A DNA stretch of 64,000 nt from Vicinamibacterales bacterium (lineage in GTDB: Bacteria > Acidobacteriota > Vicinamibacteria > Vicinamibacterales > SCN-69-37). Positions within the stretch are counted from its first letter, which is position 1; each line of letters begins with the position of its first letter. Below are positions 1,849 through 53,597 of this stretch, in pieces. Both the position numbers and the translations under genes were made by a program. The notes beneath the pieces were generated by a model. It saw nothing but the letters and a program-made list of their open reading frames with translations. It made no database searches and was not told where the DNA came from. The stretch is taken from the NCBI GenBank assembly GCA_035550595.1, contig DASZOV010000053.1:3607-67606 (forward strand). Reading direction: 5' to 3'.

Positions 1849-4290
1849 ATGGATGTGTTCCGCGACGCTCGTCTCGTCGTCCGACGTCTGCTGAAGTCGC
1901 CCGGATACGTCGTCGCGTCGACGATGACGCTTGCGCTCGCCATCGGCGCGAATACCGCCATCTTCAGCGCGGTGTACAGCGTGTTGCTCGCGCCGCTGCC
2001 TATTCGGAATCCCACCCGGCTGGTCATTGCGTGGAAGACGGAACCGACCCGCAATCTCGCCGTCGTTGAAGCGACGTTTCGCGACTACGAACGTTGGCGT
2101 GCCGCGAGTCAGAGTTTCGTTCAGGTGGCGGCGATGGGCTCGTCGTCGTGGCCAGCCGTTCTCGAAGACGATGCGGGGGCGACCACGCTGGCGTCAGTAG
2201 GGGTGACGGCGACCTTCTTCGACACGCTCGGCGCACGGCCGATTCTCGGCCGCGCACTCCAGCCAGAGGACGACCAGCCAGCCGCTCGACCCGTTGCGGT
2301 ACTGAGTCATGACTTCTGGGCACGTCACTTCGGCGCCGATCCGTCGGTTGTCGGCACGCCGCTCCGGCTCGCCTCTGGTCCAATGGAAATCGTCGGCGTC
2401 ATGCCGCCCGATTTTGACTTTCCACGTGGCACGTCGTTCTGGACGTCGGTCGTGCCTGTTCTCGCGGGCTCCGGGAAATCGTGGGGGACTGATGCCTTCG
2501 AGAAGGTCGGTGTGCTTTTCGTGTTGGGGCGCTTACGCGACGGCATCACGCTCGAGTCCGCGACACGCGAGCTGGACGCGATCGCGCGGCATGCCCCCGA
2601 CACCTTGCCGAGGCCGGCCGCGGTGCCCGCGGTCACGGTGACGGCGTTTCCGGACTACGTCCTCGGTCCTGTACGGTCCGCGCTCTGGTGGCTGCTCGCG
2701 GCTGTTGCGGTCCTTCTGCTCGTGGCGTGCGCCAACGTCTCGGGCCTCATGCTGACCCGTGCGAGCCTGCAACGGCGCGAGCAGGCGATCCGTTTGACGC
2801 TCGGTGCGACGACCGTCGAGATCGCCCGTGCGTGGGTGCTCGAAAGTTCGATACTGGCACTGGTCGGTGGGGTACTCGGGCTCGCCGCGTCCCGGTGGAT
2901 GCTCTCGATGATGGCTGCGCTCGCGCCGACAGATATTCCACATCTGGCAGATATCACCCTCAACGTTCCCGTGGCGTTGTTCACGCTGGCCATTGTCGGA
3001 CTCACGGCCCTGCTGTGTGGTTTCGGTCCAATCGTTCAGCTTCGGACCGGCGGCTTACTGACGGTTCTGAACGAGGCCGCGCGCGGCTCGACTGGCCGGC
3101 AGTCCGTGCGCATCCGATCAGTGCTGGCGACGCTGCAGATCGCGCTCGCCGTGGTCCTGTTGATTTCAGCCGGGTTGATCGTGCGGAGTGTGACGGCGCT
3201 GCACCGATTGAATCTCGGCTTCAATCCGTCGGGCGTCGTGACGATGGCCATTCAGCCGCGCATCAACCAGCCATCGCCGAATGAGGCGATTCACGGCCTG
3301 CTCGAGCGCATCGAGCAGTTGCCGCACGTGCAGGACGCCGGCGCAATCTTTCTGCGGCCGTTGGCGCTCGGCGCGATAGGCCAAGAGACGACGGTCGTGC
3401 TCGACGGGCAAGTGGACACGCCGGCCACGCGAGCTGGCAATCCCGTCTTGAACTACCAAGTGGCCACGCCGGGATACTTCCGCGCGATGCGTGTGCCCCT
3501 GGTGCGCGGCCGATGGTTCGACGATCATGACGACGCGCACTCGACGCGCGTCGCGATCCTCGGTGAGACCGCCGCCGCGCGCCTTTTCCCCGGACAAGAT
3601 CCGATCGGCCGAAAGCTGGCTATGCCATCGTTCGTCCCTCGAGACGACAGCATGGTGTGGCGCACGGTCGTCGGCGTCGTCAATGACATCCGGTATCGCG
3701 GGCTCGATGACGTCCGTCTCGACGTCTATGACGCCGCGCGTCAGGCCGTGCAGACGGCCGGCTACGTCGTCGTCAGGACCGACGGGGATCCGATGACGAC
3801 GGCGATGACCGTCGAAGGAGAGGCGCGTCAAGACGTCCGTGCGGTCGTCGACGACGTGACGACGATGGACGCGGTCGTGGCACGAGCCGTGGCGCCGTGG
3901 CGCTTCAGCATGTGGACCTTCTCGCTCTTCGCCGTGATGGCGTTCGCGCTGGCCACCGTCGGACTCGTCGGCGTCGTGAGTCTCGACGTCGCACACCGGT
4001 CGCACGAGTTCGCGGTGCGGCTCGCCGTTGGTGCCGATCGCGCGGCCATCCTCGCGCGTGTCATGCGTTCCATCGGCTCGCGTCTGTTGGTGGGCGTCAG
4101 TCTCGGCCTGTTCGTCGCCATCGCGTCGAGCCGTACGCTCGGCGGCCTGCTCTTCGGCGTCAGTCCCATCGATGCCACGACCTACGGAACGGTCATCGTC
4201 CTCGTGATGATCGTGGTAGTAGCCGCGTCGTACGCGCCGGCACGACGAGCGGCCAGCACCGACCCGGCGGTGCTGTTCAGGACGGAATAG
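1849..4290 (+). CDS. ABC-transporter permease, duplicated FtsX/MacB-like (ADOP family)
   Basis: ORF 1726..4290. ATG 1849 gives the canonical N-terminus MDVFRDARLVVRRLLKSPGYVVASTMTLALAIGANTAIFS. Two FtsX-type 4-TM modules are each preceded by a MacB-like periplasmic domain. ~813 aa. Confidence 0.85.
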   Translation: MDVFRDARLVVRRLLKSPGYVVASTMTLALAIGANTAIFSAVYSVLLAPLPIRNPTRLVIAWKTEPTRNLAVVEATFRDYERWRAASQSFVQVAAMGSSSWPAVLEDDAGATTLASVGVTATFFDTLGARPILGRALQPEDDQPAARPVAVLSHDFWARHFGADPSVVGTPLRLASGPMEIVGVMPPDFDFPRGTSFWTSVVPVLAGSGKSWGTDAFEKVGVLFVLGRLRDGITLESATRELDAIARHAPDTLPRPAAVPAVTVTAFPDYVLGPVRSALWWLLAAVAVLLLVACANVSGLMLTRASLQRREQAIRLTLGATTVEIARAWVLESSILALVGGVLGLAASRWMLSMMAALAPTDIPHLADITLNVPVALFTLAIVGLTALLCGFGPIVQLRTGGLLTVLNEAARGSTGRQSVRIRSVLATLQIALAVVLLISAGLIVRSVTALHRLNLGFNPSGVVTMAIQPRINQPSPNEAIHGLLERIEQLPHVQDAGAIFLRPLALGAIGQETTVVLDGQVDTPATRAGNPVLNYQVATPGYFRAMRVPLVRGRWFDDHDDAHSTRVAILGETAAARLFPGQDPIGRKLAMPSFVPRDDSMVWRTVVGVVNDIRYRGLDDVRLDVYDAARQAVQTAGYVVVRTDGDPMTTAMTVEGEARQDVRAVVDDVTTMDAVVARAVAPWRFSMWTFSLFAVMAFALATVGLVGVVSLDVAHRSHEFAVRLAVGADRAAILARVMRSIGSRLLVGVSLGLFVAIASSRTLGGLLFGVSPIDATTYGTVIVLVMIVVVAASYAPARRAASTDPAVLFRTE

Positions 4291-31350: not shown

Positions 31351-31583
31351 TGCCTGGCGCCTGCTCGTTCCGTGGCTGTCACCGCGTCGCGACCACGGGC
31401 CGCTGGTGCGACGAGTGCCGCATCCGCGAGCGCCAACGCAAGCGGCAACGCCGCGCCTGGCACCGCGAGCGGATGCGGATGCATCGGGCGATGGCGCGCG
31501 AGGACATGCCGGCGAGCGTCATCGAGCAGGCCCTCCGGCGACTGGACGCGGCGCGCAATCTGCGCCGCTGGACGAGCGAGTAA
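31350..31583 (+). CDS. small Arg-rich hypothetical protein
   Basis: TGATG coupling. CSFRGC..CDEC. Confidence 0.4.
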   Translation: MPGACSFRGCHRVATTGRWCDECRIRERQRKRQRRAWHRERMRMHRAMAREDMPASVIEQALRRLDAARNLRRWTSE

Positions 31584-31602
31584 CACCGAGAGGAGTCCGA
31601 TA

Positions 31603-32544
31603 GTGTGCAATTTCCTGAGCGCCGTCGTGCTGCGGAACGGTCACGTCCTGACCCATCCGATGCTCGACCATCACAGCGACCTGATCACATATTTCAAGCT
31701 GCCGGACACGTCGGCCTATCACCAGCACTTCGCGAAGGTCGAGTTGACGCCGGTGGACTGGATGGACGTCAACACGTGGCGCTTCCGGCTCGACGAGGAA
31801 TCCGCGCCGGGCTGGTGGGAGGACGTCGCGGCTGCGGCGGAAAAGGAACTCCGCACACGCGCGAACGCGATGATCCTCCGCGACGGTGAGCACGAGTTGA
31901 TCGTTGATGGCTGCTGGATCGTGGGCGGCACCGCCAAGATCCGCGACATCCGCAGCGGCCGAATCGTGCGCGTGCAGGACACCGCCGCGCTGTCCGGCGT
32001 GTGGGGCTCGGCGCAAGTGTCCGGCGTGTGGGGCTCGGCGCAAGTGTCCGACGTGCGGGACTCGGCGCAAGTGTCCGGCGTGTGGGACTCGGCGCAAGTG
32101 TCCGACGTGTGGGGCTCGGCGCGGGTGTCCGGCGTGGGGGGCTCGGCGCGGGTGTCCGTCGTGGGGGACTCGGCGCAAGTGTCCGCCGTGGGGGGCTCGG
32201 CGCGGGTGTCCGGCGTGTGGGGCTCGGCGCAAGTGTCCGACGTGTGGGGCTCGGCGCAAGTGTCCGACGTGCGGGACTCGGCGCAAGTGTCCGACGTGCG
32301 GGACTCGGCGCGGGTGTCCAACGTGCGGGGCTCGGCGCAAGTGTCCAACGTGTGGGGCTCGGCGCAAGTGTCCGACGTGCGGGACTCGGCGCGGGTGTCC
32401 AACGTGCGGGGCTCGGCGCGGGTGTCCGGCGTGGGGCCGGATGTCGTGCTCGACGCCAGCGCGAAGACCCATTGCGCTGACGCGCCAGCGCCGGCCGCCG
32501 CGCCAACACCGAAGAAAACGCGCACGCGAAAGGCGAAGTCATGA
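31603..32544 (+). CDS. nonapeptide-repeat (putative beta-solenoid) protein with a globular N-terminal domain
   Basis: GTG 31603 follows GAGAGGAG. There is a ~125-aa N-terminal domain, 16.5 copies of VS[GDNVA]V[WRG][GD]SA[QR], then a basic tail. Confidence 0.65.
   Translation: MCNFLSAVVLRNGHVLTHPMLDHHSDLITYFKLPDTSAYHQHFAKVELTPVDWMDVNTWRFRLDEESAPGWWEDVAAAAEKELRTRANAMILRDGEHELIVDGCWIVGGTAKIRDIRSGRIVRVQDTAALSGVWGSAQVSGVWGSAQVSDVRDSAQVSGVWDSAQVSDVWGSARVSGVGGSARVSVVGDSAQVSAVGGSARVSGVWGSAQVSDVWGSAQVSDVRDSAQVSDVRDSARVSNVRGSAQVSNVWGSAQVSDVRDSARVSNVRGSARVSGVGPDVVLDASAKTHCADAPAPAAAPTPKKTRTRKAKS
31990..32437 (+). repeat. 27-bp in-frame tandem repeat, 16 full plus 1 partial copies
   Basis: Consensus GTGTCCGRCGTGYGGGRCTCGGCGCRR. 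Unit starts follow 31990+27n (for example 32341, 32368, 32395). Confidence 0.95.
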
Positions 32545-33112: not shown

Positions 33113-33976
33113 ATGGCACGAGGACGCATGATTTCGTGTTCTCTCAGCGTGTCCGAGAAATTCGCGGCGCTCTATACGCAGGCCGGCGAACTCGCCGAGT
33201 TCTGCCAGGCCCTTTATCCGCTGCTCGTCGTCCACAGCGACGACTTCGGCCGGCAACATGGCGATCCGTTCACGGTCAAGCTCGCGTGCCTGCCAATCTC
33301 GCCGCGGCCATTGGAAGACTTCGACCGCGCGCTCGACCATTTGGACGCCGTTGGGCTCATCGCGCGCTATGTCGTCGACGGCAAGCGCTACATCCAGATC
33401 GAGAAGTTCGACGAGCATCAATCAAGTCTCCATAAGCGCACGAAGTCGAAGTTGCCAGCATTCAATGAGTTACAGGATCTTCCGGGAATTTCCGGGAATT
33501 TCCGGGAAACTCCGGGAATTTCCGGGTCAAGAGAAGAGAACAGAACGGAAGAGAAGAGAACGGAAGTACCTCGGGAGATGAAAGATCCATCTCCATCGGT
33601 TGCGCCGTCGGCTCGCAAAGAACGCAAGCCGAACGCCGCGCCGACGCGGGAACTCCTGACCGAATTCGATCGGCTTCATCGCCAGCATCTCGGCGCACCA
33701 GCGGTGATTCAGGGCGGCAAAGACGCCGCGCTCATCGCCCGCCTCTGGCGCAGCCACGGCGAGCGCGTGAGGCCGCTCATGGCTGCATTCTTCTCGTCGC
33801 CAGACCCGTTTATTCGCTCGGCGGGCTACACCGTCGGCCTGTTCGTGACACAAGCCGCGAAGCTCATCGCGCAATCGCGTCCGCCCGCTCGCGCTTCGCC
33901 GCGCCTCGAAACGGTCGCCGAGATGCGGGCACGAATGGCGGCCGAAGATGCCGCGACGGACACGACCACACACTGA
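33113..33976 (+). CDS. putative replication initiator (lambda O-like role) with an internal origin
   Basis: Sits directly upstream of DnaB. Iterons are embedded mid-gene. The N-terminal domain has a winged-helix look. No strong family motif was recalled. Confidence 0.55.
   Translation: MARGRMISCSLSVSEKFAALYTQAGELAEFCQALYPLLVVHSDDFGRQHGDPFTVKLACLPISPRPLEDFDRALDHLDAVGLIARYVVDGKRYIQIEKFDEHQSSLHKRTKSKLPAFNELQDLPGISGNFRETPGISGSREENRTEEKRTEVPREMKDPSPSVAPSARKERKPNAAPTRELLTEFDRLHRQHLGAPAVIQGGKDAALIARLWRSHGERVRPLMAAFFSSPDPFIRSAGYTVGLFVTQAAKLIAQSRPPARASPRLETVAEMRARMAAEDAATDTTTH
33481..33530. repeat. five 10-bp iterons TCCGGGAAtT (putative ori)
   Basis: tccgggaatt tccgggaatt tccgggaaac tccgggaatt tccgggtcaa. 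Followed by 2 x AAGAGAAGAGAAC (33529-33541 and 33549-33561). Confidence 0.9.
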
Positions 33977-33989
33977 CGGGAGCAGACGA

Positions 33990-35318
33990 GTGAGGCAGGA
34001 CATCGACACCACGCACGCGGACGAGGCCGAGCGGGCCGTGCTCGGCGCGTGCCTGATTCGGGAGTCGGCGGTCGACGAAATCGCCGACTGGCTGGAGCCC
34101 GGGCACTTCCGGCGCGGCCATCATCGCGCCGTCTACGCGGCCGTGCTGGACCTGCACCGCCGGGGGCAGCCGTCAGATCTCGTGACGCTGCGTGACGCGC
34201 TCGAAGCGTCGGGCACGCTCGACCAGGTGGGCGGCGTGGCGGTGATTGCCAGCCTCACCGATGGCGTGCCGAAGACGGCGAACGTGGAGCACTACGCCCG
34301 CATCGTCCGCGACAAGGCGCTGATTCGGGCCGTGCGCGACGAATGCCGGCGGCTCGTCGACGAGGCCGAGCGCGAGGGGCAGAGCGGCGCGGCGCTGCTG
34401 GAGCAGGCCGAAGCGGCGATCTATCGCATCGGCTCGACCAGCGTGCGGACGGATTGGGTGTCCGCCGAACAACTCGCCGACGAGCTCGGTCCGGTCGTCG
34501 AGCGGCTGACCGAGCAGCATCAGGCCATCAGCGGTGTGCCGTCCGGGTTGGCGGATCTCGACTGGCTGACGCGCGGCTGGCAGGCGGGGGATCTTGTCGT
34601 GCTCGGTGCCAGACCCTCAAGCGGAAAGACGGCATGCGCGCTGCAATTCGCGATGCGCGCGGCCGTCAATGTGCAGGTGGCGTTTTTCTCGGTCGAGATG
34701 GGGTTGCAGGCGATCGGCTTGCGTGCGCTGACAGCCGAGGCGCAGATCGACGGCTTCAGGCTCATGAGCGGCTACGTGCGCGATGACGTGTCGCTACATC
34801 GACTCGGCGAAGGACTCGCGGCGCTCGGATCGCGCCGGCTGTGGATCGATGAATCGCCGCGCCTGTCGCCGGTGTCGATGCGATCCCGGTTGCGTCGTTT
34901 GCGCTCGATGACCGGGGCGATCGGGCTCGTCATCGTCGACTACCTACAACTGCTTGACCCGTTGCCCGAGCATCGGCGCGAGTCGCGCACAAATCAAGTC
35001 GCTGGCATCAGTCGCGCGCTCAAGGTGATGGCGCGGGAATTCGCGGTGCCGTTCATTGCGCTGGCGCAACTCAACCGGCAACTAGAGCAGGCCGGCGACA
35101 AGCGGCCGAGGTTGAGCGACCTGAAGGATAGCGGCGCGATCGAGCAAGACGCCGACGTCGTGCTGTTCCTCCACCGGCCTGAACTCTACGAGCGGGATAA
35201 GCCCGAACTCGAAGGGCTCGCCGAGTTGCATTTAGCGAAGCACCGCAACGGTCCGCTCGGCACGGTCCCGCTCACGTTCCATAAGGCGCAGATGCGTTTC
35301 GAAGCGAGGCAAGCATGA
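33990..35318 (+). CDS. dnaB: replicative DNA helicase DnaB
   Basis: AERAVLGACL.., Walker A GARPSSGKTACAL, LVIVDYLQL, ALAQLNR and LKDSGAIEQDADVVLFLHR. GTG 33990 follows GGGAG. Confidence 0.9.
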   Translation: MRQDIDTTHADEAERAVLGACLIRESAVDEIADWLEPGHFRRGHHRAVYAAVLDLHRRGQPSDLVTLRDALEASGTLDQVGGVAVIASLTDGVPKTANVEHYARIVRDKALIRAVRDECRRLVDEAEREGQSGAALLEQAEAAIYRIGSTSVRTDWVSAEQLADELGPVVERLTEQHQAISGVPSGLADLDWLTRGWQAGDLVVLGARPSSGKTACALQFAMRAAVNVQVAFFSVEMGLQAIGLRALTAEAQIDGFRLMSGYVRDDVSLHRLGEGLAALGSRRLWIDESPRLSPVSMRSRLRRLRSMTGAIGLVIVDYLQLLDPLPEHRRESRTNQVAGISRALKVMAREFAVPFIALAQLNRQLEQAGDKRPRLSDLKDSGAIEQDADVVLFLHRPELYERDKPELEGLAELHLAKHRNGPLGTVPLTFHKAQMRFEARQA

Positions 35319-36087: not shown

Positions 36088-37341
36088 ATGACGAACGAGA
36101 GCACGAAATGGCCGTATGTCGTCCGACAGGACAACGCCGCGTGCGATGAGTGCGGCGCGGGCGCGTATTGGAGCGTGGTATTCGCGCTCGAAGACGTGGC
36201 GCTATCGACGAGTTTTGAGGACCGCGACGAGGCGGAACATCGCGCCCATGAAGTCAACGAGGCGTACCGGCGCGGGAAGGAGGCGGCGATGACCGCATCC
36301 GCTGAATCTGCTCGTCGCCTCGAAGACCTACGCGTCGCGCTGATCCGCGCGATCAATACCGCGTTGGCCCATGCTGGCGTCGAGTTGCCGGCGTCGGCGG
36401 CAGCGACGGTGGAACCAACAGCGACCGTCTGGACGCCAGAGTTCGCGGCGGCGTTTGATGCCTCCACGCCCACCGACGAGCAACGCCTGACCGCGACCGT
36501 CGAGGGGTGTCGCGCCCAACTGGAGGCCGAACGAGAGTTGCACCGCGAGGAGATGGCCGCCATCACGGCCGAACGTGCGGCGCTCGCCGACTATCTCCAG
36601 GACGGCGAGACAGTCGTTGAGTGCGTCAAGCGGATCGCGGCTGAGCGGGACCGCTGGCGGGCAGAGGTCGGGAGTGCGCAGTCGGCCAGGGCTGAGGCCA
36701 CGTCCCGCGCCGAAGGGCTGGAGGTTGAGCGGGATCGCTATCGCCGCGCTGTCGACGAACTGATCACTCGCATCAATCGCGCCGAGCGATCGGCGGCGGA
36801 TGAAAAGCGGCTGGGCGACGACGCCCGCCGCGCCCTTGCCGATGCCACGCGCTGGCGGCCGATGAGCGAAGCGAAGGCGGGCGCTGAAGTAGTGATGTGC
36901 GGCCGCTTCGGCTGCCAAACCACGACCAACGCCGGCCATTACGCCGAGTCTCCGGGCGCCTTCGGCTGGCTCCCGCTCCCGCCGCTCCCGACCGCGCCGG
37001 TCACGGAGACCACGCCGGCCGCGCCGCCTGACCCGAACGTCTTCACGGCGACCGTTCGCGCGGCGAGCACCGTCATTCCGCGAGAAGACGCGGGGGCGGA
37101 TGCGCCATCTGACGACCTCGAACCCACCGGCTACGAGGAACTCAAGAACCGGAGCGCCGAGGTCATCGACCGGATTTGGCATCGGTATCCGACATGCACG
37201 GCCCCCTGGACGAGCCTCTGCTCGTCCATGTCTCACGGATTCGTCTGCACCCGCAAGGGAAACCATGCGGGGCCGCATGTGGCGTACGGCGCCCGCCCGT
37301 TCGCCTGGTGGCCGAATCACCCGGCGCCGGAGGCGAAGTAG
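36088..37341 (+). CDS. coiled-coil hypothetical protein (417 aa)
   Basis: ATG 36088 within ORF 35992..37341. Central Ala/Glu/Arg coiled coil and a Cys/His-containing C-terminal domain. Confidence 0.55.
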   Translation: MTNESTKWPYVVRQDNAACDECGAGAYWSVVFALEDVALSTSFEDRDEAEHRAHEVNEAYRRGKEAAMTASAESARRLEDLRVALIRAINTALAHAGVELPASAAATVEPTATVWTPEFAAAFDASTPTDEQRLTATVEGCRAQLEAERELHREEMAAITAERAALADYLQDGETVVECVKRIAAERDRWRAEVGSAQSARAEATSRAEGLEVERDRYRRAVDELITRINRAERSAADEKRLGDDARRALADATRWRPMSEAKAGAEVVMCGRFGCQTTTNAGHYAESPGAFGWLPLPPLPTAPVTETTPAAPPDPNVFTATVRAASTVIPREDAGADAPSDDLEPTGYEELKNRSAEVIDRIWHRYPTCTAPWTSLCSSMSHGFVCTRKGNHAGPHVAYGARPFAWWPNHPAPEAK

Positions 37342-42024: not shown

Positions 42025-42567
42025 ATGTTCGAGACCGCCTGTATCCCGATGCTGATCAATAAGGCCACGCTGCGGCGCGAGATGGATGACGAGGAGTCCT
42101 ATCGCGTTGCCGACGTGACGCTGCTGTTAGAGCCGTTCAGCCGCGAGTTGGCGGCCGAACTCGGCGAGCACATTGCCGCGCATCTCTTCGAGGACGACGA
42201 GATGCGCCCCGAAGTCGAGAAGGTCAACCTCTCTCTCAATGCGCCGGATCAGCGCGTCATTGTGGCAAGTGCGCCGGATGCGCCCGCGCTGGCCGAACTG
42301 AAGTCTGTCACGATCGGCGCGCTGGCTGTGACGCGTAAGGCGAAGGAGGATCACGAATGGTATCGCGCGACGATCGAGGCGCGAATCGATCTGCGTGAGC
42401 GCGAGATTCGCGAGTTCTTGTTTCATCACTTCGGCGAGTTGCGCGTGTTCACGTTCTATCCGGAGCAGACACCGTTGTTCGGAGGCCACGGCGCGACGTT
42501 GACGAACGCCGACACCGGCGAAGTCCTGGCCGAGTGGAATGGCGGGGCTGGGGAGGCGACGCACTGA
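42025..42567 (+). CDS. hypothetical protein (180 aa)
   Basis: Clean ORF with no family recognised. Confidence 0.55.
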   Translation: MFETACIPMLINKATLRREMDDEESYRVADVTLLLEPFSRELAAELGEHIAAHLFEDDEMRPEVEKVNLSLNAPDQRVIVASAPDAPALAELKSVTIGALAVTRKAKEDHEWYRATIEARIDLREREIREFLFHHFGELRVFTFYPEQTPLFGGHGATLTNADTGEVLAEWNGGAGEATH

Positions 42568-42854
42568 TGGCTGATGAATTCAGCGGGCTCCCGGTGTTAC
42601 CGGCGGCGTTAGCCTGCGGGCTTGCGTTGCAGCGGATAGTTGGGGACCGGCTCAGCCGCGACCAGTGCCTTGACCTTTGGCGCGAACAGAAGCGGAACGA
42701 GCTGAACATGGTTGGCGTCATGCTCGAAATCTTTGAGCGCGGCTGCTACTTCACGCCCGCTCGGCCGGAAGCCCTCGCCATGCGGTCGGCTTTTGAGGCC
42801 GCCCGCCAGAAGCTGCGCGGGAACTGGGAGCCGCGAGGAGGAGCGACGACATGA
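42567..42854 (+). CDS. hypothetical protein
   Basis: TGATG coupling. 95 aa. Confidence 0.45.
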   Translation: MADEFSGLPVLPAALACGLALQRIVGDRLSRDQCLDLWREQKRNELNMVGVMLEIFERGCYFTPARPEALAMRSAFEAARQKLRGNWEPRGGATT

Positions 42855-43207
42855 AGCGCATTCTGATGTGGCGGAAGCGATGGAAGAGCGGCGGATGGCC
42901 ACCCTTGCCAGATCCGATTCCGCCGCCGCCGGACCTGCCGCCAGCGCCGTCGCGGCAGCGGCACATGACGGTCAACGGCGTGGATATCGCCTTCTGCGAC
43001 GGAGAGTCTGGCGACGGCGAGCCGGTGTCGATAACGATCGACGCATGCCCAGAGCCGCTACCTTCGGATGAGCGATTCGCTACGGCCGAAGCGGCGGCGA
43101 TGCGCCAGTCGCGAGCGCCACTCCGGACCGTGCTGCCAGTTGGAGACTGGGAAGTCGTCGCAACGTACGAGTTCGTCGATGTGGTCGCACGGAAGCGAGA
43201 CGCCTGA
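42851..43207 (+). CDS. hypothetical protein
   Basis: ATGA coupling. 118 aa. Confidence 0.45.
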   Translation: MKRILMWRKRWKSGGWPPLPDPIPPPPDLPPAPSRQRHMTVNGVDIAFCDGESGDGEPVSITIDACPEPLPSDERFATAEAAAMRQSRAPLRTVLPVGDWEVVATYEFVDVVARKRDA

Positions 43208-43455
43208 TGCCACGCTACCGCCGTCCTCCGCTCACCCTCGCCGCGATCCAGCAGGACGGGCCACCTTTGCGTGTCCGCGATCTAGTCGCCATCACGGGCC
43301 TGACGCCGGCAACCGTGCGGGCGGAAGTCGCGTCTGGCCATCTCGTCGCGCATCGGCTGGCTGGCGTCGGCTACTGGATGGTGCAGCGAGCTGAGGCGCG
43401 GCGGTGGCTGGAGGCGTTAGGGTTCAGTGTGACGCAGTCGGAGATGCGCTTATAA
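43207..43455 (+). CDS. HTH (excisionase/MerR-like) DNA-binding protein
   Basis: LRVRDLVAITGLTPATVRAEVASGHLVAHRL..YWMVQRAEARRWL. Confidence 0.55.
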   Translation: MPRYRRPPLTLAAIQQDGPPLRVRDLVAITGLTPATVRAEVASGHLVAHRLAGVGYWMVQRAEARRWLEALGFSVTQSEMRL

Positions 43456-43466
43456 GTTGGGCGCGC

Positions 43467-43519
43467 GGCACGGCATGCCTTGGCCTGGCGCGGCCGGGCT
43501 GGGCAAGGCAGGGCTTGGC
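43467..43519 (+). repeat. (NNGGC) pentanucleotide array 1, 11 register positions
   Basis: GGC starts at 43467, 472, 482, 487, 492, 497, 502, 507, 512 and 517. Position 43477 is GCC. Confidence 0.95.
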
Positions 43520-43551
43520 AAGGGGCTGTAAAGCCAAAGGAGTGATAAGAG

Positions 43552-44211
43552 ATGCGTAGTTACACGGTGACGCTGATGGGCAAGATGCCGCTGCTGATGC
43601 ACGCGGACAACATCGAATGGGCTGACGAGATGGACGCATGGAAGAATGATCCCGCTAACAAAAAAGGGTCAAAGGCTGGCGATGACCGGTCTCCGGCCTT
43701 CCGTTGGATCGGGTCGCTCTACCATGACGGGCAGCACGTCGCGATCCCGTCAGACAACCTGATGCGGTCATTCATGGAAGGCGCCGCAATGGTGCCAGTG
43801 CCAGGCGGCAAGAACGGGAAGACGTTCAAGTCACAAAGCCAAAGCGGCATGCTGATCGATGGGACGCATTGGCCGTTGATGGTGGATGGTCAGCCGATTC
43901 TGGTCGCGCCCATTCTCGCGCTTAAGGGGGAGAAACAGTTCGAGGCCCATCAAAAAGCCGTCGAGAAGGCAGGGTTCTCGCTGCACGTCAAGCGCGCGAA
44001 GGTTGGACAGAACAAGCACGTGCGTGTTCGCCCGATCTTCCAGGCGTGGAGCGCGCGCGGCGTCGTTCATGTGTGGGACGAGCAGATCACGGATGACGTG
44101 TTGGTGCAGATCGTGACGCAGGCTGGGCTCTATAAAGGGCTCGGTGATTGGCGGCCCGGCGGGAAGACGCCGGGGCCGTTCGGGATGTTCACCGCATCAA
44201 TTGCGGCATGA
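43552..44211 (+). CDS. hypothetical protein (219 aa) flanked by GGC arrays
   Basis: RBS AAAGGAG. YTVTLMGKMPLLMH N-terminus. Gly-rich C-terminus GLYKGLGDWRPGGKTPGPFGMF. Confidence 0.65.
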   Translation: MRSYTVTLMGKMPLLMHADNIEWADEMDAWKNDPANKKGSKAGDDRSPAFRWIGSLYHDGQHVAIPSDNLMRSFMEGAAMVPVPGGKNGKTFKSQSQSGMLIDGTHWPLMVDGQPILVAPILALKGEKQFEAHQKAVEKAGFSLHVKRAKVGQNKHVRVRPIFQAWSARGVVHVWDEQITDDVLVQIVTQAGLYKGLGDWRPGGKTPGPFGMFTASIAA

Positions 44212-44219
44212 TTCGGATT

Positions 44220-44332
44220 GGCTAGGCACGGCGTGGCGCGGCGTGGCACGGTCCGGCGAGGCTCCGCACGGCTGTGCTTGGCAGGGCGTGGCATGGCAAG
44301 GCATGGCACGGCCTGGTCGGGCTAGGCGCGGC
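44220..44332 (+). repeat. (NNGGC) pentanucleotide array 2, 23 register positions
   Basis: GGC at every 5th nt from 44220 to 44330, except 44250 and 44315 (GGT), 44265 (CGC) and 44275 (TGC). Confidence 0.95.
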
Positions 44333-44342
44333 AAGGGGGCGT

Positions 44343-44861
44343 ATGCCCATTCAGATGGAGGCTCAGATAATAATGGAGCGATTTAAGCGAGATCCTCAGA
44401 ATGACGCAGATGTGCGGCTGTTGATGCAGGTATTTCCGGACATTCTACCGGACGGTCGCACCATCACTCACGCACAGTTAGAGGGCGCACTCAAGTTGTC
44501 GCGCGTGTCGTCGCGGTATAAGACGGTCGTGAACAAGTGGCGGAAGATATTGCAAGCGGAACGCTGCGTCTACCTCGACGGCATGATCGGTCGCGGTCAC
44601 GGGTTCGTGTCCCTTACGCCTGATGAAATGGTGCGATTCAGCAACCGAACCGTGCGCGCGTCTGGTCGGAAACTGAAGAAGGCGCTCGCCGTCGTCAGTA
44701 TGCCTGACGATCATCAATTGAGCCAGGACACACTGAAGTATCGCGGCTTGCTGCAGGCGGCTTTGGAGAAGATTTCAGTGGAGCAGCGTGCCGCCATCCG
44801 CGACGTGACTCGCGCGCTCGCGCCGATGAAGCAGTTGCCGAAGCGGGCGATTGGCGAATAA
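44343..44861 (+). CDS. hypothetical protein (~172 aa)
   Basis: In frame with ORF 44274..44861, whose first 23 codons read through the array. Alternative starts are 44355 and 44373. Confidence 0.6.
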   Translation: MPIQMEAQIIMERFKRDPQNDADVRLLMQVFPDILPDGRTITHAQLEGALKLSRVSSRYKTVVNKWRKILQAERCVYLDGMIGRGHGFVSLTPDEMVRFSNRTVRASGRKLKKALAVVSMPDDHQLSQDTLKYRGLLQAALEKISVEQRAAIRDVTRALAPMKQLPKRAIGE

Positions 44862-44871
44862 ATATTCGCGA

Positions 44872-44929
44872 GGCATGGCGCGGCTCGGCGCGGCTAGGCG
44901 AGGCTCGGCATGGCGTGGCTTGGTAGGGC
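44872..44929 (+). repeat. (NNGGC) pentanucleotide array 3, 12 register positions
   Basis: GGC at 44872 through 44917 and at 44927. Position 44922 is GGT. Preceded by the palindrome GCGAATAAATATTCGC (44854-44869) spanning the stop codon. Confidence 0.95.
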
Positions 44930-44968
44930 ATGGGGCCGTATGGCCAGAGGGAAAGGCGCAGTCGAAGG

Positions 44969-45337
44969 ATGCCAATCGTGCAGGTGCTCGTCCCGTTCGA
45001 TGTCCGCGTGGCGCCTGACGCCGACCGCTTCCACGCGTCCAGCCGGAGCGCGCCGGGTCTCCATGTCGACGGGGCCACGGAGCGCGAAGCGATCGCCGAG
45101 TTCGTCGCGGCGGCGCCAGCCTATATTCGCTCGCTCATGCAGGATGTTGCTCGCTATCCACCTGCCGCCCTGCGTGAAGCTGACGCAGCGCGGTATGTCG
45201 GCCTGACATGTTCGTTCCTGCGCGCGGCCCGCGTCGGCCGCTGCGATGGCCCGGCCTACATCCGAGTCGGCCGCGCGGTTCTGTATCTCGCGTCAGACCT
45301 GGATGCGTGGCTGCGCGCGCATCGAGTCGGTGTGTGA
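44969..45337 (+). CDS. HicB/DUF1902-like N-terminal domain fused to an excisionase-type HTH
   Basis: IVQVLVPFDVRVAPDADRFHASSRSAPGLHVDGATEREAIAEF, then AARYVGLTCSFLRAARVGRCDGPAYIRVGRAVLYLASDLDAWL. Confidence 0.5.
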   Translation: MPIVQVLVPFDVRVAPDADRFHASSRSAPGLHVDGATEREAIAEFVAAAPAYIRSLMQDVARYPPAALREADAARYVGLTCSFLRAARVGRCDGPAYIRVGRAVLYLASDLDAWLRAHRVGV

Positions 45338-45593
45338 CCTTCCGCGCGACACTAACCGGGTAATCCGCGCGAATCCACACATAAGACGCAACCACTCATC
45401 TAGGCAGATCCCATAACCTGGGCGCATAGTAGTGGCAGCACCGTGCTGCACTCCCCATGCCGCGCCCTCACCCCCTCCAGACACCTACACCCCACCCCCT
45501 AGACCGGGGAGGGGCGGATCCGCTACCCGGGCACTCCCGATATCCGCCGTGTCTCGGCGTCCTCCTGCGGCGGGGAGTGCGGCAGGGACGCTG

Positions 45594-46013
45594 ATGGCGA
45601 GCCGCGCGCCGCATTACTGCCCGCAACCTGGCTGCTCAGCCATCGTCACGCGCGGGCGCTGCGCGAAGCACCAGCGCGAGCGGAGCAACGACTACGACTC
45701 GGCGCGGCGAGGCGAGAGCTGGCGACGGCTCTATCACGAGGCTCGATGGCAGCGCGAGCGGGCGCGCTGGCTGCGTCGGCAGGCGAACCTGCTCTGTGTC
45801 TACTGTCTCGCCGAAGGGCGCACGACCCCGGCGAACTCCATCGACCATGACCCGCCGCACCGCGGGGACCGCGCGAAGTTCTACGACAAGTCCACGTGGC
45901 GCGCGAGCTGTGTCAGTTGCAATTCGCGGCGATCGCGGCGCGGGAACGTTTCAATGGCACGCGATTTGTCCGGGCAGGGTGGGCAAAATCATTGGGGCGG
46001 GAGGGCCGAATGA
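45594..46013 (+). CDS. HNH endonuclease (terminase-associated position)
   Basis: CVYCLAEGRTTPANSIDHDPPHRGD..CVSCNS. Immediately upstream of TerS, as in HK97-like cos phages. Confidence 0.8.
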   Translation: MASRAPHYCPQPGCSAIVTRGRCAKHQRERSNDYDSARRGESWRRLYHEARWQRERARWLRRQANLLCVYCLAEGRTTPANSIDHDPPHRGDRAKFYDKSTWRASCVSCNSRRSRRGNVSMARDLSGQGGQNHWGGRAE

Positions 46014-46123
46014 CCCGGCTTGCCCATGTTTACGCGTGCCCGCAGTTTCAAAAGTGTAATTTATTGGTGATCTGACTGAAGACACCGGAAATACACGGCG
46101 TGGCATGCAATTTGAGGCGATTG
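46014..46123. other. candidate cos/packaging-initiation region
   Basis: AT-richer 110-nt gap (GTTTCAAAAGTGTAATTTATTGGTGATCTGACTGAAG) between the HNH and TerS genes. Assigned by position only. Confidence 0.25.
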
Positions 46124-46681
46124 ATGGGCGGAAAAGGTAGCGGAGGCGCGAGAACTGGCGCGGGCCGACCGCCGAAGGATGCGCGTGAGAAGGCGCTGGC
46201 TGGTTGGGCTGGTAAGCGCGGCACCAAGGCAGAGCATGATGCCGCGATTACTCGCGCGAATCAACCCCTGCCGGTTATGTCGCCGCCCGCTGATCTGCCG
46301 GCGGATCAACGCGCGGTCTGGCTTGAGCTCGCGCCGCACGCCGCCGCCCAGCGGACGCTGACTGATGACATGGCGCTGGCGTTCAGAGATTTATGCGAGG
46401 CGATCACGCTCAAGCGGCGGATGCTCGCGACGATCGAGGATGACGGCCTGACGTATCAGCGTCGGACCGTGAAGGTCGAGCGTGAGGACGCGGACGTGGA
46501 GCTGCGGACTGAGGAATGCGAGATCAAGGCGCATCCGCTCCTGACGCACCATCGCGGGCTGATGCAGCGCGTCGAGGTCGGACTATTGCGCTTCCGGTTG
46601 TCGCCGGTCGGCAAAGAAGTCGTGCCGGACGCCGCGAACGCGAAGGATGAATGGGCGGAATTCGATGGGACGCTTCAGTAG
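46124..46681 (+). CDS. terminase small subunit, P27 family
   Basis: MGGKGSGGARTGAGRPPK N-terminus. ..AHPLL..R.GL.RFRLSP.. is typical of P27-type TerS. Confidence 0.75.
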   Translation: MGGKGSGGARTGAGRPPKDAREKALAGWAGKRGTKAEHDAAITRANQPLPVMSPPADLPADQRAVWLELAPHAAAQRTLTDDMALAFRDLCEAITLKRRMLATIEDDGLTYQRRTVKVEREDADVELRTEECEIKAHPLLTHHRGLMQRVEVGLLRFRLSPVGKEVVPDAANAKDEWAEFDGTLQ

Positions 46682-48470
46682 CGCGAAGAATTCCGTCGAC
46701 GCCTACGCGATGGCCGTCGTCGCTGGCCGCGTGCCGGCGGGCAGGTATCACCGTTTGGCCTGCGAGCGGCATCTCTTCGATCGTCGCCGTGAGGGATCGC
46801 GCGGGTTCCCGTTCCGGTTCATCTGGGAACCGACACGGCGCGGTGAGCACAGCGCGACACGGTTCCTATCCTTCGCGCGGCGCGTGAAGCACTACAAGGG
46901 CGAATGGGCCGGACGGTATTTCGAGCCGAGCGACAACCAGGTCTTCCGGCTCGGGTCGATCTTTGGCTGGCGTCACGCCGAGTCCGGGCTTCGGCGTTTC
47001 ACGACGGCGTACAACGAAATTCCTCGCAAGGGCGGCAAGACGTTCGAGGCCGCCATTGTCGCGCTCTATGGAACGTTCTTCGAGGGCGAGGCTGGCGCGG
47101 AAGGCTACTGCATCGCGACGAAGCGCGAGCAGGCCCGGCGCGTGTTTGATGACGCGAAGCGGATGGTGGTCTCGTCCGGCCTGAAGTCGCGGATCAAAGT
47201 GAACGCCGCGAACCTCTGTCGAGACGATCTCGCCTGCAAACTCGAACCGCTCGGCGCAGACGCGGACAGCACGGACGGGCTCAACCCGCATGTGATTATC
47301 ACGGACGAGTTTCACGCGCACAAAACGCGCGCGCTCATTGACGTCATGGAGAGCGCGACGGGCGCACGGCGCAACCCGCTGCATTTTCAGATCACGACGG
47401 CCGGCAATGATCCGGTCAGCCCCTGCGGCGACCAGCATGAGTACGTGACACGCATCCTTGACGGCGTGCTCGACGACGACCCGGCCACGCTCTCGATGTT
47501 CGCGTTCATTGCGCACGCCGACGAGGCGGACGACTGGCGCGAGGAAGCGACGTGGCGCAAGGCGAATCCGCACTACGACATCTCGGTCAAGCCGGATGAC
47601 ATGCGCAAGCTCGCAGCGAAGGCGATTCATATGCCGAGCGCGGCGGCCGAGTTTCAGCAGAAGCGCCTGAACATCTGGGTGAACGCCTCTGCGCCATGGC
47701 TCTCGCTCGACGGCTGGCGCAAGGGACAGACGCAATGGTCGCCTGACGACGTGCTCGGCGAGGAATGCTATCTCGGGCTCGACCTCGCCTCGAAGATTGA
47801 TCTCTGCGCGCTCGTCGCGCTCTTCCCGCCGACGCCATCGCGCGAGTCCTGGCGCATCCTGCCGTTCGCGTGGACGCCGAAGGACACGCTCGTCGAACGT
47901 GCCCATCGGGATCGCGCGCCCTATGACATCTGGGCGCAGCAGGGCTATTTGCTCACGGTGCCTGGCGAGAAGATCAGTCAGGCGCTCGTGCGGGAAAAGA
48001 TCCTCGACCTGAAATCGCGCTACCGCGTCCGCGCCATCGGGTACGACGACTGGCACATGGATCAACTCGACGAGCAACTGGTCGAGGAAGATGGCCTGTC
48101 GCGTGAATCGCTCGTCGTGGTCCCGCAGACCTACGCCGGCATGTCGTCGGCCTGTCTGCGATTCGAGGCCGAAGTCCTTGGCGGACACGTCGACGCGGGC
48201 GATTCGCCGCTCATGGCATGGTGCGCCTCAAACGTCGTCGTTCAGCGTGACGGCAAGGACAACATCTATCCGGTCAAGAAGCGCAGCCGCGGGCGCATCG
48301 ATCCCATTGTGGCGGCGAACATCGCCATGGCCTGTTACCTCAAGCAGCCGGTTGTGAGTGGCCGCAAGAAGTCCATCTACGCCACGCGCCTCGCTGAAGC
48401 CGTCATGGTGGGCGATGGGGCCTCCGCGAGTCCGGAGTCTGACGCATCGCAGGCAGGGGGGCAGGCGTGA
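46647..48470 (+). CDS. terminase large subunit
   Basis: Terminase_1-like: IPRKGGKTFEAA (Walker A-like), HVIITDEFH (Walker B) and a C-terminal nuclease domain. The start is 46647 or 46665. Confidence 0.9.
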   Translation: MNGRNSMGRFSSAKNSVDAYAMAVVAGRVPAGRYHRLACERHLFDRRREGSRGFPFRFIWEPTRRGEHSATRFLSFARRVKHYKGEWAGRYFEPSDNQVFRLGSIFGWRHAESGLRRFTTAYNEIPRKGGKTFEAAIVALYGTFFEGEAGAEGYCIATKREQARRVFDDAKRMVVSSGLKSRIKVNAANLCRDDLACKLEPLGADADSTDGLNPHVIITDEFHAHKTRALIDVMESATGARRNPLHFQITTAGNDPVSPCGDQHEYVTRILDGVLDDDPATLSMFAFIAHADEADDWREEATWRKANPHYDISVKPDDMRKLAAKAIHMPSAAAEFQQKRLNIWVNASAPWLSLDGWRKGQTQWSPDDVLGEECYLGLDLASKIDLCALVALFPPTPSRESWRILPFAWTPKDTLVERAHRDRAPYDIWAQQGYLLTVPGEKISQALVREKILDLKSRYRVRAIGYDDWHMDQLDEQLVEEDGLSRESLVVVPQTYAGMSSACLRFEAEVLGGHVDAGDSPLMAWCASNVVVQRDGKDNIYPVKKRSRGRIDPIVAANIAMACYLKQPVVSGRKKSIYATRLAEAVMVGDGASASPESDASQAGGQA

Positions 48471-53162: not shown

Positions 53163-53597
53163 ATGAGCTTTCCGAACATTCGTCCGAGTGATCGACTCGT
53201 CCTGCGAGGCGTGATCGATCCGGATGCGAACACGGCCGCGACCTACACGACCGGTTGGGTCAGTCTTGCCGACTTCGGCGCCGTGATGGCGATTGTCTTC
53301 GCGGGCGATCTGGGGTCGAGCGCGACGATCGACGCGAAGATCGAGCAGGCCAAGGATGCGAGCGCGACCGGCTCCAAGGACCTGACCGGCAAGGCGATCA
53401 CGACCCTGACCGACAGCAACGTGCAGGCCATCATCAACGTGCGCGGTGAAGACCTGGACGTCGCGAATGGCTACACGCACGTGCGCCTGTCGATGACGGT
53501 CGGCACGGCCACGAGTGACAGCGGCGCGGCCATCTTCGGTGTCGATGCGCGCTACGCGCCGGCTGACGCAGCGGATACGGTCAGCGAGGTCGTCTAG
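53163..53597 (+). CDS. hypothetical head-associated protein
   Basis: RBS AGGAG. 144 aa. Sits directly after the MCP. Confidence 0.55.
   Translation: MSFPNIRPSDRLVLRGVIDPDANTAATYTTGWVSLADFGAVMAIVFAGDLGSSATIDAKIEQAKDASATGSKDLTGKAITTLTDSNVQAIINVRGEDLDVANGYTHVRLSMTVGTATSDSGAAIFGVDARYAPADAADTVSEVV

Follow-up and report, generated by a model that had tools for sequence, protein, structure and literature searches.

A probable VIPR locus with phased NNGGC arrays upstream of the packaging genes of a GC-rich prophage

The stretch of DNA analysed here (the window) comprises 64 kb from a Vicinamibacterales bacterium (contig DASZOV010000053.1), and all coordinates given without further indication are those of this whole stretch. 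Between positions 43464 and 44945, three arrays of a 5-nt repeat, all of them on the + strand, alternate with two genes in the order vrRNA, vipr, vrRNA(s), vap, vrRNA, where the vrRNAs are the repeat-bearing RNAs predicted from the arrays. Downstream lie the genes for an HNH protein (45432-46013), TerS (46100-46681), and TerL (46647-48470), followed by portal and capsid genes, and a DNA methylase is also found among the flanking genes. The phage-type character of the HNH, TerS, TerL, portal, and capsid genes indicates that the locus resides in a phage or prophage, and identical DNA is present on metagenome contigs and on contigs of metagenome-assembled genomes (MAGs). By homology to two systems that have been characterized experimentally, this region just upstream of HNH, TerS, and TerL is very probably the Viral Interference Programmable Repeat (VIPR) locus of a prophage.

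An initial annotation of this DNA had described three phase-locked GGC arrays, and they are indeed found where it placed them. In its register (NNGGC), GGC occupies 10 of 11 units at 43467-43519, 19 of 23 at 44220-44332 (the deviants being GGT twice, CGC, and TGC, without any register slip), and 11 of 12 at 44872-44929. The VIPR literature writes the unit as YNNGG, and the unit counts differ between the two registers. Read as YNNGG, the tract of vrRNA 1 (43464..43523) holds 12 units, one of them degenerate (CATGC), and shares its strand with vipr, upstream of which it lies, as in phage SUSP1; its guide dinucleotides are GC AC AT TT CT GC CG TG AA AG TT AA. The tract of vrRNA 3 (44869..44933) holds 13 units with the dinucleotides GA AT GC TC GC TA GA TC AT GT TT AG AT. 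Between them, the second tract (44217..44336) consists of 24 in-phase units, which may form either a single long vrRNA or two. In the latter case, vrRNA 2a would correspond to units 1-9 (44217-44261) and vrRNA 2b to units 13-24 (44277-44336), separated by three degenerate units (10-12, at 44262-44276), with which a small putative hairpin, GCAC-GGCT-GTGC (44266-44277), overlaps. Blocks of 22-25 in-phase units have also been seen in relatives.

These arrays are real and far above chance. As the initial annotation had stated, the window contains nothing comparable elsewhere, since a search of both strands of the whole 64 kb for period-5 GGC runs returned only the three arrays, every other run having at most 4 units. 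In the periodicity check that it had proposed, the best run scored 11, and the scores of the shuffled controls (200 of the window with dinucleotides preserved, and 1000 of 43400-45000) peaked at 4; the autocorrelation of GG at lags 5 and 10 reaches 0.79 in array 2 against about 0.09 across the window. The two G positions and Y have an entropy of 0.15-0.35 bit each, compared with about 1.9 bit for either N. The third position of the GGY core (Y3) is a pyrimidine (C or T) at a frequency of 0.99, and the following one (N4) is 65% A+T although the window is 65% GC. The two-nucleotide spacers had been reported as not conserved, which is correct as regards their variability but not as regards a mere spacer role, NN being the guide sequence in VIPR. 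The conservation period of the arrays is 5 nt and not 3 nt, and this repeat is the only periodic element of the locus. As naked RNAs, vrRNA 1 and vrRNA 3 fold no better than shuffled sequences (z of -0.24 and +0.34), and vrRNA 2 has a z of -2.56. Rfam 15, searched with E values up to 10 across 42500-46500, returned noise only.

Each array ends in a short hairpin. These 3' tails are GGCT-GTAA-AGCC in vrRNA 1 (43524..43535, +), directly followed by the ribosome-binding site (RBS) of vipr, AAGGAG (43537-43542); GGGC-GTAT-GCCC in vrRNA 2 (44337..44348, +), which encloses an ATG at 44343; and GGCC-GTAT-GGCC in vrRNA 3 (44934..44945, +). A hairpin of the form GGNN-GUAU-NNCC follows the last unit in the three arrays of the window and in 11 arrays of three related loci (L137-L139), and the unit that precedes it is usually CAAGG. 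In the 14 tails of this clade, 96% of the cells are paired, with compensatory changes in three of the four base pairs; the value observed was attained by none of 500 shuffles, and the pairing in slid controls was 14-50%. More distant relatives show other short GC hairpins in the equivalent place. In the window and its close relatives, 1-25 nt separate the end of the hairpin from the RBS of the gene that follows.

Arrays 1 and 2 enclose a gene (43552..44211, +) for a 219-aa protein that belongs to phrog_4652 and has no Pfam family; its protein family comprises 2397 matches, none of them named. Its AlphaFold2 model (mean predicted local distance difference test, pLDDT, of 91) was compared with the PDB by Foldseek, and the best 50 matches listed were all RAMP subunits of CRISPR systems, with probabilities of up to 1.0 and template-modelling (TM) scores of 0.28-0.49; most of these 50 were Csm3, and the rest were type VII Cas7 chains and Cmr, type III-D, and type IV-A subunits. 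Among viral models, a match was annotated as "Cas system-associated RAMP superfamily protein". At the sequence level, the only significant PDB match is 36pp_D, "SUSP1 Vipr protein" (E 3.9e-14), while tblastn aligns the protein with SUSP1 gp039 at 100% coverage (E 2e-8), and hhalign aligns it with SUSP1 Vipr with a probability of 98.6% (E 8e-16). The identity between both proteins is about 23-25%.

VIPR has been reported in two preprints of April-June 2026 (bioRxiv 10.64898/2026.04.26.720920 and 10.64898/2026.04.26.720927), so that the absence of any described phage system of this kind, as had been assumed at the outset, does not hold. According to both preprints, VIPR is a phage-borne, CRISPR-like system of RNA-guided DNA binding, whose experimentally characterized representatives come from Escherichia phage SUSP1 and a Pseudomonas fulva prophage. 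It consists of the minimal RAMP protein Vipr (with a single RRM core, a G-loop, and a thumb), the accessory gene vap, for which an interaction with DNA is predicted, and the vrRNAs, which lie in the intergenic regions flanking vipr, mainly in phages, prophages, and other mobile elements. Each vrRNA carries 9-16 YNNGG repeats with a conserved GGY and a hypervariable NN, and ends in a structured, invariable 3' tail (10.64898/2026.04.26.720920, 10.64898/2026.04.26.720927). Vipr polymerizes on it, each repeat taking one protomer, into a filament of right-handed helical form, where GGY is sequestered and NN is exposed, and the series of NN pairs with double-stranded DNA (dsDNA) on either strand, skipping one base per unit and without a protospacer-adjacent motif. 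These discrete, trans-acting guides repress the transcription of competing phages, satellites, and prophages, and altering NN alone reprograms the target. Natural targets show an NN match of at least 80%, typically in frame with the wobble base skipped, and include lysogeny genes (same two preprints). The locus described here is a fresh example of this very recently described system and not a new kind of element.

The residues that read the repeat also argue for this relationship. In the cryo-electron microscopy structures of SUSP1 Vipr, the contacts to G1 and G2 are made, and Y3 is held, by H17, R138, D177, W178, and R179 (bioRxiv 10.64898/2026.04.26.720920, 10.64898/2026.04.26.720927). These five residues align with H17, R160, D199, W200, and R201 of the window protein, which are invariant in 30 homologues and are also present in gp49 of mycobacteriophage Donkeykong. 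The helix-1 residues E71 and M72 of SUSP1 are not conserved, being N69 and L70 in the window protein. Judged by sequence comparison and by the predicted model, the product of 43552-44211 is a RAMP-fold homologue of SUSP1 Vipr in which the GGY-reading residues are kept, and it is predicted to be the filament subunit that binds the vrRNAs. PADLOC and NCBIfam gave no Cas matches for the three genes in and next to the arrays, and neither of them nor Pfam had any match for vipr or vap.

The middle gene, located between arrays 2 and 3, is probably vap (vipr-accessory). It had been placed at 44343, which would give 172 aa, but that ATG lies inside the tail hairpin of vrRNA 2, and the AAGGGGG taken for its RBS corresponds to the last unit, CAAGG, plus the 5' arm of the same hairpin. 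Since the homologues measure 159-165 aa (with one of 186 aa) and 44373 is the start in one of the two gene calls available for identical contigs, the gene most likely extends from 44373 to 44861 on the + strand and encodes 162 aa. A homologue adjoins vipr in 36 of the 38 local loci that have one, mostly immediately downstream, and with an iterated local profile a match to SUSP1 gp038, which follows vipr in that phage, was obtained (E 2.5e-21). The AlphaFold2 model (pLDDT of 88) predicts a winged-helix-like N-terminal domain followed by two long helices, and Foldseek returned weak winged-helix/MarR matches for it, none at E < 0.01.

The association between arrays and vipr was examined in both directions. 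Starting from the protein, same-strand GGC arrays flank the gene in 7 of the 10 genome loci found. Starting from the repeat, an exact scan of viral contigs for ten units of GGCNN gave at least 120 loci, and a Vipr homologue was sought within the fetched flanks; among the 120 matches listed, 63 encode one according to a narrow profile and 88 according to an iterated profile. For the other 32 (including L021, L031, and L035), a homologue was not detectable in the fetched flanks; these could be orphan arrays, loci with divergent Vipr types, low-complexity false positives, or broken-off contigs. A locus of 44% GC in a Saccharibacteria MAG carries (NNGGT)n in place of GGC arrays, which indicates that the conserved core is GGY. 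Array blocks are found 398 times on the strand of vipr and 6 times on the opposite one, with 8-12 units as the commonest sizes and minor groups of 22-25 and 33 units. Between loci whose Vipr proteins are 77-81% identical, the arrays are unalignable, GGY and the tail being kept and NN being unrelated. Arrays and vipr co-occur, co-oriented, in very diverse phages, and the arrays are functionally tied to the adjacent genes, as had been proposed.

When the region was compared by blastn with 50,697 phage genomes, only the arrays gave matches, in 27 records of Cluster F mycobacteriophages (Cheoctovirus). In the two records read, Donkeykong and Saal, 250-350 nt of (NNGGC)n lie directly upstream of Donkeykong gp49 and Saal gp51 (positions 3958-4277 of locus L001, about 36889-37208 of NC_051648.1, for Donkeykong, and 3974-4194 of L002 for Saal), and homology to the window protein is seen in the C-terminus of Donkeykong gp49, both having the motif GxGDWRP in common. 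In these two phages, the arrays consist of several blocks (12, 12, 11, and 12 units) linked through a 4-nt unit, which amounts to a phase slip of 1 nt; they resemble the "staggered arrays" of the VIPR paper, and that of Donkeykong is annotated, probably wrongly, as a coding sequence (CDS), the "hypothetical protein" gp48. By tblastn, Vipr homologues were also detected in phage LittleE and in Gordonia phage MakoManhole. The position of the module differs among relatives: it follows TerL in L137 and L139, lies in a type IV secretion (T4SS) cluster of TrbI/TrbL/CagX conjugation genes in L138, and occupies the early right arm in Cluster F mycobacteriophages. The module of L138 (2355-4078; JGI 3300079162, a 77-kb contig) holds four arrays and a Vipr 77% identical to that of the window, and its position between TrbI and TrbL/CagX-type conjugation genes indicates a conjugative element and not a phage.

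Arrays elsewhere can reach 30-160 units downstream of vipr. Downstream of vipr in L016 (6311-7008) and L038 (8061-8863), GGY repeats run unbroken and in phase for 140 and 161 units (700-800 nt), and other viral contigs (L065 and L106 are also listed with long arrays) carry repeated 33-unit arrays with identical leader sequences. As these lengths are far above the published 9-16 units, some in-phase processing signal must exist.

If the locus works like its homologues of SUSP1 and P. fulva, the arrays would be transcribed and released as vrRNAs of about 60-130 nt, on which Vipr protomers, binding one per YNNGG repeat, would assemble into a helical filament. This filament would sequester each GGY and present the NN dinucleotides, whose series would then pair, in a gapped NNx register, with one of the two strands of a dsDNA target, skipping one base that is usually the codon wobble position. 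The bound complex would repress the transcription of a rival phage, satellite, or prophage, an effect that the vap protein would enhance.

The targets of the guides were sought in the window, among local loci, and, by exact-pattern scans only (eight scans, with the 1-nt-skip rule), in viral and metagenome collections. The window gave no 1-nt-skip match of at least 80% for any guide, and the local loci none but a 15/18 match for a short 9-unit guide, which is at chance level. In contrast to these results, the nine 3' units of array 2 (AT AA AT AC CT CG TA GC AA) match 17 viral contigs of 38-63% GC, and the 17 matches carry one and the same sequence, which codes for I-N/K-M-T-L-R-Y-A-K, in frame and with the wobble base skipped. 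In the six loci checked, the match falls in a tyrosine-recombinase-like open reading frame (ORF), at the catalytic-tyrosine motif, and membership of PF00589 was confirmed for L146. The match amounts to 18/18 over nine units and 19-20/24 over twelve, the three upstream units being unmatched, and it represents a single independent event among eight scans. It fits what has been published on VIPR as regards lysogeny genes and the skipping of wobble bases, and it is suggestive of the catalytic-tyrosine motif of a tyrosine-integrase family as the best candidate for a natural target. Among the ORFs of the window itself, none has the integrase box-II motif (G-H/W ... M/T/S-T-x-x-Y).

Other matches were recorded during these searches. 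An all-against-all comparison of about 450 local arrays with skips of 0, 1, 2, or 3 nt gave 3 unbiased pairs for skip 1, compared with none for skip 0 and a single one for skip 2, the complex matches being too few for an independent check of the skip rule. An 8-unit match at 53163-53186 of the window is a lead only, as chance should yield about 2 matches of this kind in the all-against-all comparison. In L160, positions 1775-1798 agree in 16/16 bases with units 8-15 of a guide of L138 (array at 2355); this site lies upstream of an integrase gene, 7-30 nt from its start, and the gene is of the same family as the one hit by array 2 of the window at the catalytic motif. The homologous positions match at 14/16 in L157 and 13/16 in L158, and this is possibly due to chance.

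Several points weigh against assigning the locus to VIPR, or against parts of the mechanism outlined above. The mechanism rests on homology to the characterized Vipr of SUSP1 at about 23-25% identity, and both VIPR papers are preprints. The tails in the window, minimal hairpins of 4 bp that abut the next RBS and have GUAU or GUAA as the loop, contrast with the pseudoknotted tail of the SUSP1 clade, and the 24 in-phase units of array 2 exceed the published 9-16 unless they form two vrRNAs. A scan of 42800-45500 found no sigma-70-like promoter; according to this result, the vrRNAs may be processed out of an operon transcript. The same scan found no terminator-like sites on the + strand. For vap, hhalign with SUSP1 gp038 gave an E value of only 0.011 over 64 collinear columns, which is weak, and BLASTP of the vap product of the window found no link to either SUSP1 gp038 or Donkeykong gp50. 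As regards targets, the 20-base (10-unit) patterns of three guides had no matches in viral contigs, and three of the four 18-base patterns had 0, 2, and 1, which is about the number expected by chance and did not extend. The one metagenome match (23/26) lies in a cellular gene, is also at chance level, and likewise did not extend.

The initial annotation had interpreted the arrays by reference to Bacillus TRAP, proposing a ring-shaped binder and leader RNAs that gate the expression of a small module. In such an autoregulatory operator, the arrays would be cis-acting leader or intercistronic sites on which the protein polymerizes to control its own operon, and NN would be uninformative. Units numbering 11-13 recall the 11 sites of TRAP, and protein loading next to tail hairpins placed so close to the following RBS could affect translation. 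This explanation is nevertheless very improbable, because the neighbouring genes encode no TRAP-family or other ring-forming RNA-binding domain that could be found, and the binder is a RAMP (Cas7-fold) protein whose SUSP1 homologue forms an open, right-handed helical filament. In addition, the arrays also follow the last gene, occur in varied contexts, and elsewhere extend far downstream of vipr; no terminator-like elements were found; the conserved triplet is GGY and not (G/U)AG; and the RNAs of the homologous system are trans-acting guides that are retargeted by a change in NN alone. The RNA tracks bound unit by unit by an oligomer encoded next door, which the same annotation had inferred, are borne out by homology to SUSP1, as is its view of the 5-nt geometry as a protein-binding register that would leave two nucleotides free.

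Two further explanations do without a guide function. GG at every fifth nucleotide formally fits two-tetrad G-quadruplexes, (G2N3)n, and the place of the module just upstream of HNH, TerS, and TerL would suit phased dsDNA sites bound by a late activator or packaging protein, or belonging to an origin. Y3 is, however, conserved as a pyrimidine, for which G-quadruplexes have no requirement, shuffled sequences fold as well as two of the three naked RNAs, and the strong bias towards the strand of vipr indicates a function at the RNA level. The dsDNA-site and packaging alternatives raised in the initial annotation are contradicted by the variable genomic context (after TerL, in a conjugation cluster, or in an early right arm), and pac, ori, and late-activator sites were rejected because the position of the module is not conserved; as a whole, this explanation is scarcely credible. 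The arrays could also be translated within repeat-containing proteins, since open frames traverse them (such as the ORF from 44274) and GenBank has a CDS over the Donkeykong array. Coding repeats were rejected because the conservation period is 5 and not 3 nt; the number of units varies freely among relatives, the 4-nt units of the mycobacteriophage arrays shift the frame, NN is unrelated between close homologues, and the homologues of the 172-aa ORF begin after the array. The arrays are non-coding, and the probability left to a translated repeat is next to nil.

Within the VIPR assignment, it is conceivable, although rather unlikely, that the GC-rich clade departs somewhat from the SUSP1 paradigm in two respects, namely a guide directed at a family-level integrase motif and a coupling of vrRNA excision and Vipr loading to the expression of vipr and vap. 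Regarding the former, units 16-24 of array 2 may read codon positions 1-2 of I-N/K-M-T-L-R-Y-A-K across unrelated temperate phages (38-63% GC), in which case the skipping of wobble bases would direct the system to a protein motif and not to one rival genome, making it a family-level weapon against integration and lysogeny. As for the latter, vrRNAs occupy every intercistronic gap and their hairpins abut the next RBS, and therefore excision and loading could also be coupled to vipr and vap expression, which could keep part of the cis-regulatory idea of the initial annotation.

The VIPR assignment matters because VIPR recognizes DNA by means of RNA guides in a newly reported way and has been proposed as the ancestor of the CRISPR RAMP effectors. 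With this locus, VIPR is extended by a GC-rich prophage clade whose tail is a minimal hairpin, whose genes have arrays between them, and in which one tract may comprise 24 units. As a detector, the (NNGGY)n signature is usable by itself, given the presence of Vipr in 88 of the 120 pattern-only viral matches listed. Large staggered arrays and Vipr homologues occur in Cluster F mycobacteriophages, phages of M. smegmatis that lend themselves to genetic work. Should the integrase motif be a true target, one guide could, through the skipping of wobble bases, strike a conserved protein motif across divergent rivals.

Other features of the window deserve mention. The neighbouring gene at 44969..45337 (+) encodes 122 aa with a C-terminal HTH_17/excisionase-like domain, its Pfam and PHROG matches being below or near threshold. 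The gene after the last array differs in L137-L139, and for this reason 44969..45337 is not regarded as a conserved part of the module. A 27-nt tandem repeat at 31991-32433 (16.4 copies, 89% matches), inside the ORF 31372-32544, encodes a nonapeptide repeat (VSGVWGSAQ-like); it is coding and unrelated to the arrays. Another repeat, (TTCCGGGAAT)x4.7, lies at 33480-33566 inside the ORF 33113-33976, together with adjoining AG-rich short repeats, just upstream of an ORF of 456 aa (33948-35318) that is DnaB-helicase-like by eye, and these repeats could be origin or iteron-like sequences.

Among known systems, the VIPR of SUSP1 is the closest to this locus. Both have one small homologous RAMP protein with conserved GGY-contact residues, tandem YNNGG repeats with a conserved GGY and a hypervariable NN, same-strand arrays that flank vipr intergenically (one upstream and the rest downstream), a structured 3' tail, and, for the window probably, a small accessory gene directly downstream of vipr, and the location in a prophage is likewise shared with published VIPR. 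In contrast, the clade of the window is GC-rich, with GGC instead of GGT and a Vipr identity of about 23-25%, and an array is interleaved between vipr and vap. The resemblance to Bacillus TRAP resides in an oligomer that reads a trinucleotide about 11 times, with spacers of 2-3 nt, on single-stranded RNA. TRAP differs in being a closed 11- or 12-mer ring of unrelated fold that recognizes the triplet (G/U)AG and acts in cis on a leader to control attenuation and translation, its spacers carrying no information. With class 1 CRISPR-Cas (Cas7, Csm3, or Cmr4 on crRNA), the locus shares the RAMP fold and, as predicted from its homologues, one protomer per periodic RNA segment, thumb-mediated base flipping, and RNA-guided recognition of nucleic acids. 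It has, by contrast, no repeat-spacer array, no other cas genes, and no adaptation module, and a CRISPR-Cas locus is ruled out, as the only repeat is the 5-nt one, PADLOC and NCBIfam gave no Cas matches for the three genes, and the RAMP fold alone is common to both. Finally, the guide of VIPR is non-contiguous, with a period of 5 nt and 2 informative bases, compared to 6 nt and 5 informative bases in CRISPR-Cas.

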